From NCBI GenBank assembly GCA_965263295.1, contig OZ253665.1, positions 2,016,001-2,080,000 on the forward strand: DNA of 64,000 nt. The letters are read 5' to 3'. Shown here in pieces: positions 256 to 57,722 of this stretch; the first letter of the stretch is position 1; every line of letters begins with the position of its first letter. Below the pieces are notes generated by a model. The model had not been told where the DNA came from, did no database searches, and saw nothing but the letters and a program-made list of their open reading frames with translations. The stretch is from Spirochaetia bacterium. GTDB lineage: Bacteria; Spirochaetota; Spirochaetia; SP-2023. Both the position numbers and the translations under genes were made by a program.

Positions 256-810
256 TCAAAAATCCAAAACCTGGAAATTTGTAAACACAGCTTCTTCAAT
301 CTTACCGTTCTGTAATAACTCGTTGACCCTGATTTTTAACTCTTCCTTGACGCGGTCCTCGTTGGTGCTACTGAGTTCGCGCGCCGTATGACTGGAGAAG
401 TACTTGCGAAAAAAGTCTGTAAGCTGGGGCTTACGCCGCGTCAACTCTTCACTAAGGTTGGGAAACTTTTCACCGTCGTACCCCAATTCTATTTTCACGG
501 TCACCGAACGCGGAGACGCATCCGCAGTACGGGTCCGCAAATCTGGGATCTGGTCATAGTACGTGTAAATCGGATTATTGACAGTGAATTCGTTCGAAAT
601 CTGTGTCAGCTGCGTGTTGCGATCGCCACTGTCCAAAATTTTATTCGTAAAATAAGAAACTACCACCATGACGATAAGAAAAATTAAAGCGACCGCGACA
701 TAGACTAAAGCCTTTACTATTAGACTACTGCCATTCTTGCGTCTCTTAAGTCCCTTTGAATCGCCAGCGCTTTCTTCGGCAACTTCTTCTACTACTTCAT
801 CATCCGCCAT
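256..810 (-). CDS. fliL: flagellar basal body-associated protein FliL
   Basis: 184 aa, single N-terminal TM helix, C-terminal ELKIRVNELL..GKIEEAVFTNF; SD GGGAGG; upstream of fliM. Confidence 0.9.
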   Translation of the reverse strand: MADDEVVEEVAEESAGDSKGLKRRKNGSSLIVKALVYVAVALIFLIVMVVVSYFTNKILDSGDRNTQLTQISNEFTVNNPIYTYYDQIPDLRTRTADASPRSVTVKIELGYDGEKFPNLSEELTRRKPQLTDFFRKYFSSHTARELSSTNEDRVKEELKIRVNELLQNGKIEEAVFTNFQVLDF

Positions 811-888
811 TGATTTCCTCCCTGGTCCTTAATTGCACCAACTGCAAGCCAGTTCTTTGAAGCAAATTTTACAGGATTTCAGATACTC

Positions 889-53382: not shown

Positions 53383-53488
53383 TTATCATACACACGGGGG
53401 AACGCAAGCGATGACGCGCCTGCATATCAGCGAGGAATTATTGTGAAGGCCCTTGCCGATTGACAACTGACAGGCGTATTTTGTGTAT

Positions 53489-56383
53489 ATGAATGCCGAA
53501 CAATATACCCAGAATTGCCTTGAAACTATGCAGAATGCCGCAAACATGGCAGCGGAGCAGGGGCACGGCCGCGTAGGCGGTCTACACTTGCTGGTCAGCT
53601 TGCTCAGCGGTGACAGCCTCAGTCAGAACCTGCTTGAAACTTGTGGCTATTCTTCCTGGCCTGTAATCTTGACCCGTGCGCGCGAACAGCTAGGTCAGCT
53701 GTCACAACAGGCCCAGGAAGGAAACAAAATTGATGCCGACGTCCAGCTCAACGAGATATTGCAAAACGCGGCTCAGCAAGCCCGCAAGCTAGGGGATAGC
53801 TTTGTCGGCAATGAACATATCGTGCTGGCGCTGGCCGGCCTCGCGCCGAAGGCGCAAACGCAGCCGCAGAGACAACACGAAAATGTCGATTGCCTGACTC
53901 TGATTCGTGAAGCAGGATGGAATCATCAACAACTCAAACAAGCTTTGATACAGATCCGCCGGGGCCGAGACCCCGGCAATAATGCCACCGCCACCATGGG
54001 CAACATGGGCAACATGGGTAACATGGGTCGTGCCATGGATGATACCACAGGTGCCGAACGCGCAGGGCAACCGGACGAAAATCATATTCTGAAGCGTTTT
54101 TGCCAGGACTTTACCGCTTTGGCCGCCGAGCACAAACTGGATCCCGTAATCGGCCGCAACGACGAAATCCGGCGCTGCATGCAAGTCCTGCTGCGGCGAA
54201 CCAAAAACAACCCCGTGCTGATCGGCGAGCCGGGTGTGGGCAAAACCGCCATTATTGAAGGTCTGGCCCAGCGTGTTCTGAGCGGAGATGTGCCGGGTAC
54301 CCTGAAAAACAAACGGGTGCTGGCCCTGGACATGGGCAGCCTGGTCGCGGGAGCCAAATATCGTGGCGAATTTGAGGAACGCCTCAAGGCGGTCATTGGC
54401 GAGCTAAAGGCCGCAGAAGGCCGCGTCATTCTGTTTATCGACGAGCTGCATACCATTATGGGTGCGGGGGCTGCCGAAGGCAGCACCGACGCTTCGAATT
54501 TACTCAAACCCGCGTTGGCGCGCGGCGAGCTGCATTGCATCGGCGCCACTACTTTAAATGAGTATCGCCAGCACATCGAAAAGGACAGCGCACTGGAACG
54601 CCGCTTTCAGCCGATTGTGGTGCGCGAACCCGACAACAATTCGGCCCTGGCCATACTGCGCGGTCTGAAGGAACGCTACGAGCTGCACCACGGCGTACGC
54701 ATTCGCGACGATGCCTTAGTCAGTGCCGTCAAACTTTCCAGCCGCTACATCCCACAACGCTTCCTGCCGGATAAAGCCATTGACCTGGTTGACGAAGCCG
54801 CCAGCCGGGTGAAAAGTGAGCTGGAAAGTCAGCCGCTGATATTGGATCAACTCGATCGCCAGATCATGCAAAAAGAGATGGAAATTTACTCTCTCAAGAG
54901 CCAGAACAGCAAACTTAGCCCCAGCGAAGAGGAACAGCTGCGCACGCTGCAGCGTGAACTGCAGAGCTTGCGCGAACAAAGGGACGGCATTTACGCCCGT
55001 TGGCAAAAAGAACTCAAACGCATGGAAAAGCTGCGCGGAGCTAAAGAACGGGTGGAAACCTTGCGCCAGGAGCTGGAAGAATGCCAACGCCGGGGCGATC
55101 TTGAACGGGCCTCGCGCATCAAGTATGAAGACCTGCCTCAAGCCCGGCAGCAAAGGAAAGAGGCCGAAGCCCAGTTGCGCCAGCAGGCTCAAGGTAGAGA
55201 GACAGACAAGCGTGACGGCGAAGCTAAGCTATTGCGCGAAGAAGTCGGCGAAGCTAAGCTATTGCGCGAAGAAGTCGGCGAAGCTGAAGTGGCCGCAGTG
55301 CTATCCAGTTGGGTTGGCATTCCTGTGGAGCGCATGCTGCAATCCGAACGCCAGCGTTTCCTGCTTCTCGACCAGCGCCTGTGCCAAAGAGTCAAAGGCC
55401 AATATCAGGCTGTCGAAGCCGTCAGTCGGGCCATCCAGCGCAGCAAGAGTGGCCTGGCCGACCCGGCCCGGCCTCTAGGCTGTTTTCTGTTCCTCGGCCC
55501 CACCGGCGTCGGCAAGACAGAACTCGCAAAGGCCCTGGCCGAAGAATTGTTTGCCACACCACAAAGCGGCGCGGAAGCAGGGCCGACCATCTCCCCGGCT
55601 AACTACACGGGTGGAACAGAAGTGCGCCATAATCCGCTAATTCGTATTGACATGAGCGAATACAATGAGCGCCACAGCACTGCTCGGCTAATTGGTGCAC
55701 CTCCCGGCTACGTTGGTTATGAACAGGGCGGACAGCTCACCGAACGGGTGCGCCGTCAGCCTTACAGCATCATTCTCCTAGACGAAATGGAGAAGGCCCA
55801 CACCGAAGTTCTAAATATTTTCTTGCAGGTATTGGATGAAGGGCGCCTCACCGATGGGCAGGGTCGCACCGTAGACTTTCGCAATTGCGTAATCATATTC
55901 ACCTCCAACTTTGGCAGCCAGCAGCTACTTGCAGAGTCCGACTGGGAACGGGCTAAAATGCAGGTACAGCAAGCACTGTATCGCAGCCTAAAACCGGAAT
56001 TCTTGAACCGCCTCGATGAAATCATTTATTTCAATCCGCTCGGTTCGCAAGAGATTCGCCAAATCGTGCGCCTACAATTAGACCAAGTCCATCGCCTGGC
56101 TGCGGAGCAACATCTTCAGGTTGAAATTGGTACGCGCTTGGAAAGCCTACTTGTCAAAGAAGGATATTCCCCTGAATTTGGTGCCCGCCCACTCAAGCGC
56201 CTGATTCAGAACTACATTTACAACTCACTGGCTCAACACTTACTGGCAAACCATGTAAACGAAGGCAAGCTGTTGCGCCTGGAACTGGGGCAAGACGGAC
56301 AAATACAGATCCAATGCAGTCAACTGGAAAGCAGTAGCCCAGTTTCTCAGGAAGCTCAACTCAAGCTGCCTTTTCCAAAATGA
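53489..56383 (+). CDS. clpB: ATP-dependent chaperone ClpB
   Basis: Two AAA+ modules ([16 protein letters not shown]), coiled-coil middle domain, GYVG pore loop, GARPL; ATG 53489. Confidence 0.95.
55216..55285 (+). repeat. perfect 30-bp in-frame tandem duplication in clpB
   Basis: GGCGAAGCTAAGCTATTGCGCGAAGAAGTC x2 ([10 protein letters not shown] x2), bounded by CGGCGAAGCT microhomology. Confidence 0.95.
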
Positions 56384-56432: not shown

Positions 56433-56464
56433 AAAAACAAAAAACCTTGGCCCGGAGGCCAAGG
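56433..56464 (-). terminator. intrinsic terminator, minus strand
   Basis: 8-bp stem CCTTGGCC/GGCCAAGG with 4-nt loop, followed on the minus strand by TTTTTTGTTTTT. Confidence 0.8.
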
Positions 56465-56513
56465 CTAAGATTTGAATCATTTGGGAGGGGAACAATGAAT
56501 TTCAAATCTCGCT
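56436..56513 (-). ncRNA. candidate ~80-nt small regulatory RNA
   Basis: sigma28-like promoter, then a 14-bp hairpin with GUUCCCCUCCCA loop, then a terminator; no minus-strand ORF explains the terminator. Confidence 0.5.
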
Positions 56514-56517
56514 CCTA

Positions 56518-56544
56518 TTATCGTCTCCCTCTTTGTAAAGTTAA
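56518..56544 (-). promoter_or_regulatory. sigma28 (FliA)-like promoter
   Basis: TTAA-N15-GACGATAA versus consensus TAAA-N15-GCCGATAA (10/12). Confidence 0.45.
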
Positions 56545-57327
56545 TAGTTTTTTTAAAAAAATAAAAAATCTTAAAGAATTCTTCTGGCGTTCCAATATTT
56601 TTCTATAAACCATAATAAACCACTTAAATATAAATCAAGTAAAATGATATAACTTCAGTTAACGGGATACGGTCAGAAATCTTCTTGCCATGGCAGGAAA
56701 GTAGAGACTTTTCTGCTCATCTACAATAATTTTAGCTAATTTTTGTTTTATTTTAAGGATAAAATTAATCATATAATAGATATTTTATCCACATTCCAGA
56801 ATGTTCTTCTATCCATCTTGTCGATAGCCGCACTCCGTAAGTCCAGAGCGCAGTTTATCAAAGGAAAGCATCCCCCAATAGTTTTCCTCATAAAAGGGTC
56901 AAACTTTGATTGAGCAACTGACGCTATATTATTTTGTTACCAGCTCACGTTTGTCCATCATGAATCTGGTTTAAACCCAGACTGCAAAAGCCAGAATACC
57001 GGCAACGCAAATCAAACTATAAAAATTTTCTTGTTGAATAACATGTTGGCATTAAATACCAGAGAATCAGTCATCACATTTGAACTACAGGGTGGAAGAA
57101 TCCTGCAAGATACTGTTTAAAAATAATTTAGAAGCCAAGTATATTTAGGAGTTAAACCACATTTTACGGTCGCCAAGTGCTTGGCCAGCCACATTCCCGG
57201 CACATTTAAGTTGTAAGCGCATGGCTTGTCTGTTAATCTATATATCCAGAGGGTCGAAACAAGCCAAAAGCCATTATAAAAAGTATTTCGCTCATTTTCT
57301 AAAAGACTTAGAAGATGAATCAAAGAC

Positions 57328-57690
57328 ATGGAACCGCCCAATATGCCAACCTTTCTAATCAAAAACGACAAAATCAAAGCAGATGACAGCTCCATTATTG
57401 TGCAAAGCGACAACGCCTCCAATGGCAAACGGCTACGCATTCCAGAAGAGACGGAATGCATTAAAGTAGTATTCCATCAGCCCAATCTTATGTGCAACAT
57501 TGACTCCGTTTGCCGGTTGTTTATGGGGATAAACTCAGTTTACCAGCTATTTGAACGTGCAAGATCTCTGCATGATATTGATAAGATTGTCGCCATAAAC
57601 TTGCCGAGCCAAACGGGCAAGCAGCGCCCAGAAACCTTCCGCCACGACAAAAACCAACCGGAACGAGAGCCTGCCGCCTTAAGCCATTAA
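57328..57690 (+). CDS. hypothetical protein or gene fragment
   Basis: 120-aa ORF with protein-like composition, no family recognised, no clear SD. Confidence 0.35.
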   Translation: MEPPNMPTFLIKNDKIKADDSSIIVQSDNASNGKRLRIPEETECIKVVFHQPNLMCNIDSVCRLFMGINSVYQLFERARSLHDIDKIVAINLPSQTGKQRPETFRHDKNQPEREPAALSH

Positions 57691-57722
57691 GCTACTCGCC
57701 ATCCCTTTTTAGCACACTCTCA

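Follow-up and report, generated by a model that had tools for sequence, protein, structure and literature searches.

The window (the whole stretch of DNA that was analysed, 64,000 nucleotides of contig OZ253665.1 from a member of Spirochaetia) carries at 56433..56544, on the minus strand, a candidate conserved RNA gene that is almost certainly real, and which represents, in diverged form, a predicted small-RNA family spread over much of the phylum. The RNA is predicted to be transcribed by FliA and probably blocks, with its C-rich loop, translation of fliF and ftsZ, and often of fliP, fliZ and fliI as well. The features referred to below are as follows.

56541..56544, minus strand: -35 element of a sigma-28-type promoter, TTAA, read off the window
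56518..56525, minus strand: -10 element GACGATAA, separated from the -35 element by a 15-nt spacer
56494..56510, minus strand: 5' arm of the first hairpin in the fold, with the genus-specific GAGAUUUGAA..UCAUU
56482..56493, minus strand: exposed loop GUUCCCCUCCCA, the predicted seed, unpaired in the fold
56467..56481, minus strand: 3' arm of the first hairpin, from the fold and comparison with relatives
56433..56466, minus strand: intrinsic terminator, with a 10-pair stem at 56443-56466 and a U-run to about 56433
53483..56383, plus strand: clpB, a convergent neighbour outside the unit (Pfam ClpB/AAA domains)
808..822, minus strand: ribosome-binding site and start of fliL, the target proposed earlier (FliL Pfam match)

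The predicted transcription unit and its family in spirochaetes

When the minus strand was re-read, promoter, hairpin, C-rich loop and terminator were found where the initial annotation had placed them. Judging from the spacing, transcription would start at about 56511. The first hairpin has 15 pairs, with the closing G-U counted, and a 2-nt bulge, and the U-run of the terminator serves the minus strand only. For the 75-nt RNA the folding energy is -30.7 kcal/mol (z -6.2), a stability equalled by none of 200 shuffles, and opening of the loop UUCCCCUCC costs 0.02 kcal/mol. The loop of this fold is C-rich and GGA occurs in none of its loops; a CsrA decoy of the CsrB type, which requires several loop GGA motifs, was rejected on this ground. 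The promoter-plus-loop pattern occurs once in the 2.4-Mb genome (2.41 Mb). The promoter motif by itself is weak evidence: when one mismatch is allowed, the window has five copies where 0.6 are expected. The unit reappears, with identical hairpin and terminator stem, in contigs from two public DNA runs, which rules out an assembly error. A search of the window with Rfam 15 gave nothing at or above the gathering threshold but one tRNA. Upstream of the RNA, at 56600-57700 of the window, lies about 1.1 kb of AT-rich DNA with no nameable gene; two frames, 114 and 120 aa long, overlap there in opposite directions.

That this is a stand-alone small RNA unit, as first claimed, is borne out by the genus Ca. 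Haliotispira. All three congeners of the window's genome carry the unit, and its neighbour genes vary between genomes and can face either way, which argues that it is self-contained. Spacer and flanks vary within the genus, whereas the -10 box, the loop and most bases of the stem do not. The four sequences keep 99 of 100 pair cells without any double change, and the terminator changes between the relatives preserve pairing.

A covariance model built from the four genus sequences found matches in 11 of 151 genomes of the class. Seven of these were weak and combined the same promoter shape and a terminator with another stem and the loop G(U/G)UCCCCUCCCAGUU. The promoter-plus-loop pattern was present in 208 of the 401 genomes of Spirochaetia, in single copy for the most part, versus about 11 in the reversed control, a figure counted by eye. 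Promoter, hairpin and terminator were seen together at 65 of the 66 loci inspected, a set chosen non-randomly. A second covariance model gave 21 matches, 20 of them true, in 40 mostly pattern-negative genomes, so that 208 must be a minimum. Outside the class Spirochaetia, 14 of 20 inspected loci were clear members and 2 were partial, and two large families yielded 1/23 and 0/24. L161, L319, four of the 20 outside-class loci and three non-spirochaete rows were dropped as false positives. At two outside-class loci, L385 (G473) and L384 (G454), two tandem terminator-like hairpins stand 3' of the RNA.

Loop and promoter are kept in related spirochaetes and the stems covary, which is what the initial annotation had proposed to check. 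The loop core CCCCUCCCA is present in all verified homologues, and the core UCCCCUCCC(A) is nearly fixed across the family. Among 40 aligned homologues, with the stem pairs named by hand, double changes occurred in 16 of 20 pairs, a count reached by 0 of 500 shuffles, and in 7 of the 8 terminator pairs. In this alignment 90% of cells pair, versus at most 48% in slid controls. RNAalifold found only the terminator in the 40 rows, because the first stem is badly aligned. The usual stem, that of most spirochaetes, has a UGUCGG..UAUAG 5' arm and UGUCGG..CCGACA pairing. Rfam assigned no family to 11 typical homologous loci (best suhB, 31 of 41 bits). A DNA search of 40 relatives missed every distant homologue, its two weak matches being T-rich flank, and a metagenome scan with the genus-specific pattern returned no match.

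Evidence for sigma-28 control

It is very likely, judging from the conserved motif and its distribution, that the RNA gene is driven by sigma-28. The promoter of the unit matches the mapped sigma-28 promoter of T. denticola flaB2, for which a -35 TTAA and a -10 CCGATAA are given in PMC9481697. The -10 box GACGATAA is invariant in all four genomes of the genus, with a variable spacer, and this box turned up unasked in 7/7 distant covariance-model matches. At the -35 positions, which lay outside the search pattern, the first T is kept in 59 and the third A in 64 of 65 homologues. The claim of a sigma-28-type promoter also called for fliA in the genome and for the same motif at flaB genes. Both were found in the four genus genomes, each of which has fliA and TAAA-N15-CCCGA before one flaB.

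Across the class, fliA and the RNA co-occur. We detected fliA in 299 of 401 Spirochaetia genomes and in 200 of the 208 that are pattern-positive. Of the eight exceptions, five are genomes of 68-88% completeness and three come from fliA-less families. Six such families gave 3 pattern matches in 94 genomes, and the covariance model rejects both of those tested. It is possible to read the same -10 bases as a sigma-70 GATAAT, 16 nt from TTAACT; this would leave the fixed CGA and the co-occurrence with fliA unexplained.

A separate observation concerns the flaB leaders. A conserved hairpin, GAGCACGGAUGCUC with a GGA loop, precedes flaB by about 40 nt (near G000 1414846; L013-L016), and in all four genus genomes it lies 3' of the sigma-28 promoter of one flaB. 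It presumably resembles a CsrA site. A csrA motif search of called genes of at least 90 aa found none, with a size limit that would miss csrA. The leader of a second flaB (G000 606281; L009-L012) has a CTCCCTCAT..GAGAGAG hairpin before the ribosome-binding site in 4/4 genomes; no sigma-28 motif was seen there.

Complementary start sites and their possible explanations

To score the start regions we fetched the flagellar and division clusters and calculated seed energies for 37 genes, counting a site of -19 kcal/mol or lower as strong. Such a site precedes fliF in 33 of 42 cases and ftsZ in 24 of 32, followed by fliP (15/27), fliZ (13/26) and fliI (10/36); these counts overstate the pattern, because related genomes are not independent, and some of the start codons, which came from our own scripts, are wrong in the fliP and fliZ rows. 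The cluster genes other than these five have a strong site in only 17 of 889 cases, among them fliM with 5/27 and flgE with 0/26. In the window's genome 11 of 1738 genes reach the same threshold. When 34 genomes that carry the RNA were searched without bias for UGGGAGGGG before ATG, the 30 loci returned included three at fliF, two at ftsZ, one each at fliP and fliE, and two that were the RNA gene itself.

The composition of the sites also points to the loop. Pairing with the 16S tail is nearly equal for fliF (-11.4), ftsZ (-11.4) and fliE (-11.1), and so does not single out fliF and ftsZ from fliE. Immediately 5' of the G-run, U stands in 58 of 79 sites, compared with 106 of 505 other sites, and one base further out C stands in 38/79 versus 94/505, both in agreement with the AG of the loop; complementarity beyond these two flanking bases was tested and showed no enrichment. 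Many fliP sites read CUGGGGGGGGAAUG and fit the loop through a G-U pair. A perfect 12-nt complement had no non-self site in three of five genomes tested, which indicates that the targets are not perfect matches. Taken as a whole, repression of fliF and ftsZ by the RNA seems probable in most spirochaetes; repression, not activation, is assumed from the position of the sites.

Could the RNA be real and sigma-28-driven, and yet not act mainly by occlusion of fliF and ftsZ? The G-rich sites would then be kept for a bound protein or for an unusual mode of initiation, and the loop would bind a protein, or protect or open its partners. Three genomes, G040, G067 and G132, speak for this possibility, as they retain strong fliF and ftsZ sites while the RNA was detected neither by pattern nor by model, nor (in G040 and G132) at the PBP1A locus. 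So does Ca. Haliotispira, where the loop is unchanged while the fliF and ftsZ sites decay. On the other hand, the sites depart from the 16S-optimal form in just the way that the loop predicts, and the poly-G sites of fliP carry G in place of A opposite the U of the loop. The 11 genomes without detected RNA together have fliF at -19 in 4 and ftsZ in 3 of 7; eight of them, in a split from the three genomes named above that was made after the data were seen, have mostly ordinary sites (fliF 1/8, ftsZ 0/4 at -19). An unfiltered model search recovered one missed RNA copy, in G305. We regard action other than by occlusion as unlikely, and prefer pairing over the start regions of fliF and ftsZ.

Predicted pairing with flagellar ribosome-binding sites, as originally proposed, stands for fliF, fliP, fliZ and fliI, but not for the genes first named, fliL, cheA and cheW. 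The complementarity noted at fliL (12 of 15 nucleotides) does exist, as do UUUGGGAG in the cheA leader and GGGAGG before cheW. However, when the 1738 start regions of the window's own genome were ranked with opening energies included, fliL came 70th, cheW 125th and cheA 345th, the last two having been scored in this genome only. The GGGAGG site of fliL is missing in all three genus relatives, and a fliL seed energy of -19 kcal/mol or lower was found in none of 26 other RNA-bearing genomes. Five flagellar genes, fliL included, do fall in the top 5% here (5/35, p 0.03, uncorrected for Shine-Dalgarno strength). A feedback of the RNA on the fliL and cheA-cheW mRNAs is, in sum, very improbable.

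Two further explanations would place the function of the element elsewhere than in a trans-acting RNA. The unit might be a cis element, which would serve the downstream PBP1A gene as leader or attenuator or else be a mere terminator of the upstream gene, and a PBP1A-like gene indeed adjoins it at 65 of 86 loci. Yet in the genus and outside the class the neighbours are unrelated and in either orientation; a TTGAC(A/T) -35 element follows the terminator at 36 of 64 loci, which suggests that PBP1A has its own promoter; and a second hairpin and a fixed loop are unnecessary for a terminator. We give a cis role little credence. Least credible of all is a feature of the opposite strand, where a small peptide gene would have its Shine-Dalgarno and ATG sequestered in the manner of type I toxin-antitoxin loci: the window does have there a Shine-Dalgarno, an ATG and a 37-codon frame, overlooked before, and GGGAGG-N6-ATG opens MNFKS.. 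frames in 4/4 genus genomes, but these frames vary from 13 to 37 codons within the genus, such a start exists in only 12 of 65 homologues with lengths of 1-46 and no common peptide, and promoter and U-run are oriented the other way. A type I toxin-antitoxin locus was rejected for want of a conserved peptide frame opposite the RNA.

Proposed role, known RNAs and the copy in Ca. Haliotispira

In the established flagellar hierarchy, sigma-28 transcription follows completion of the hook-basal body. Under the mechanism we propose, the RNA would accumulate once this structure is finished and sigma-28 is released from FlgM. The C-rich loop would start pairing over the Shine-Dalgarno sequence and up to the start codon, which would lower synthesis of the MS ring (FliF), the export gate and the division ring (FtsZ), so that new motors and division would be restrained during filament growth. 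FlgM and FliA are both reported in T. denticola (PMC9481697).

More tentatively, and with somewhat less than an even chance of being right, the RNA might be an ancient phylum-wide checkpoint from flagellum to division, where shut-down of FliF and FtsZ translation times septation relative to the growth of the periplasmic flagella; Borrelia-like spirochaetes would have lost sigma-28, the RNA and the sites together, and Ca. Haliotispira would have kept the seed, swapped the stem and gained a new target. Spirochaete shape and motility need periplasmic flagella, which are rebuilt at each division, and how this is coordinated is described as open in PMC11607428, where Borrelia is stated to be without sigma-28. 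One short RNA whose fixed seed is complementary to fliF and ftsZ alike offers a cheap and direct test of a link between division and motility, in a family found in half or more of the sampled Spirochaetia genomes, treponeme-like ones included. To our knowledge, one seed kept across a phylum is rare among base-pairing RNAs.

An unpaired C-rich loop as anti-Shine-Dalgarno seed is known from RsaE/RoxS and RNAIII of Firmicutes, whose promoters differ and whose targets are metabolic or virulence genes; the Rfam models of these RNAs do not match the spirochaete one. The E. coli RNAs UhpU, MotR, FliX and FlgO share sigma-28 control and post-transcriptional flagellar tuning with the predicted spirochaete RNA, but are UTR-derived, MotR and FliX pair within ribosomal-protein coding regions, and the accessible text of PMC10578931 reports no fliF or ftsZ target for them. 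The closest likeness is to CjNC1/CjNC4 of C. jejuni (CJnc10/CJnc170, FlmR), sigma-28 RNAs predicted to pair over the ribosome-binding sites of earlier flagellar genes (PMC4626219, PMC11187230). As far as these two sources describe it, FlmR is likewise a stand-alone short RNA with a sigma-28 promoter and a conserved pairing region followed by a terminator, and its genomic position differs between species. In contrast, FlmR has 44-47 nt with the pairing region 5' of one stem-loop, targets the sigma-54 genes flgE, flaB and flgP, and ranges over thermophilic Campylobacter, whereas the spirochaete RNA has 75-95 nt and a hairpin-loop seed, its sites are at fliF, fliP, fliZ, fliI and ftsZ, and its range is much of the phylum. 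No Rfam family joins the two, and layout, length and targets, as described, differ. The properties expected of an RNA of the FlmR kind were found here, namely a conserved sigma-28 motif, co-presence of fliA, non-coding character, its own terminator and conserved structure, together with complementarity that is class-wide (fliF, fliP, fliZ, fliI) and weak in the window's genus. By this analogy, the spirochaete RNA is predicted to work like FlmR, probably as a separate family that differs in layout, range and the ftsZ site.

A description of the RNA was absent from the literature searched, which included few subscription papers; Treponema RNA candidates are listed in PMC8040213 and PMC8551640. 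The latter also cites micro-sized RNAs of T. denticola, and a term search of the accessible text of PMC8632094 found no treponeme named.

The window's copy may be regarded as a natural experiment, in which the seed is the same, stem and locus are new and the ancestral sites have decayed. The stem of the genus is unrelated to the usual UGUCGG..CCGACA, its loop is without the GUUUA tail, and the gene is displaced from the usual place before the PBP1A gene. In all four genomes the fliF site has shrunk to GAGGGG (6 nt) and the ftsZ site to GGAGG (5 nt), with weak seed energies of -11.6 to -13.8 for fliF and -9.3 for ftsZ. In the window's genome they rank 52nd and 138th of 1738; among 159 orthologue pairs with G003, ranked by the weaker of the two energies, they come 3rd and 8th.

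The sole site strong in 4/4 genus genomes, GGAGGGGA(A/G)AUGAAC, precedes the gene after lspA, which encodes a membrane protein of 91-93 aa. It ranks second of 1738, with seed energies from -17.8 to -21.7, and through UUCAUU, the arm specific to the genus, pairing could reach across the start codon. The protein has no NCBIfam match, and the atlas gives a lead only, to a spirochaete family at 0.89. As a class-wide target this gene was rejected: a start was called in 18 of 20 regions, several of them non-orthologous, and the best energy among these was -14.7. The moved gene, the replaced stem, the shrunken fliF and ftsZ sites and the new post-lspA site suggest that the target set in the genus is likely to be partly rewired.

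Several minor observations were made in the same genomes. The flagellar superoperon of G000, the window's genome, is split, with ftsZ, flgB-fliI, flgE-motB, fliL-flhG, fliK-flgD and fliA in six places, whereas in most fetched genomes these genes lie within about 35 kb; this break-up may bear on the decayed sites. A gene for a vWA-like secreted protein (G000 477498, L035; G002, L053) has UUUGGGAGGGGAAC before its start, a site that takes the top rank in G000 and is absent from G001 and G003 at three mismatches. At G000 627935, plus strand (L039:1514-1654), a 14-nt perfect complement to the loop and 5' arm spans the start of a 47-aa acidic frame with no Pfam match. Finally, in G002 C1 the start signal GGAGGGGAATTACAATG occurs 13 times in two clusters, at 1862835-1911407 and 2663950-2683446, which suggests an expanded gene family with which the RNA could pair.
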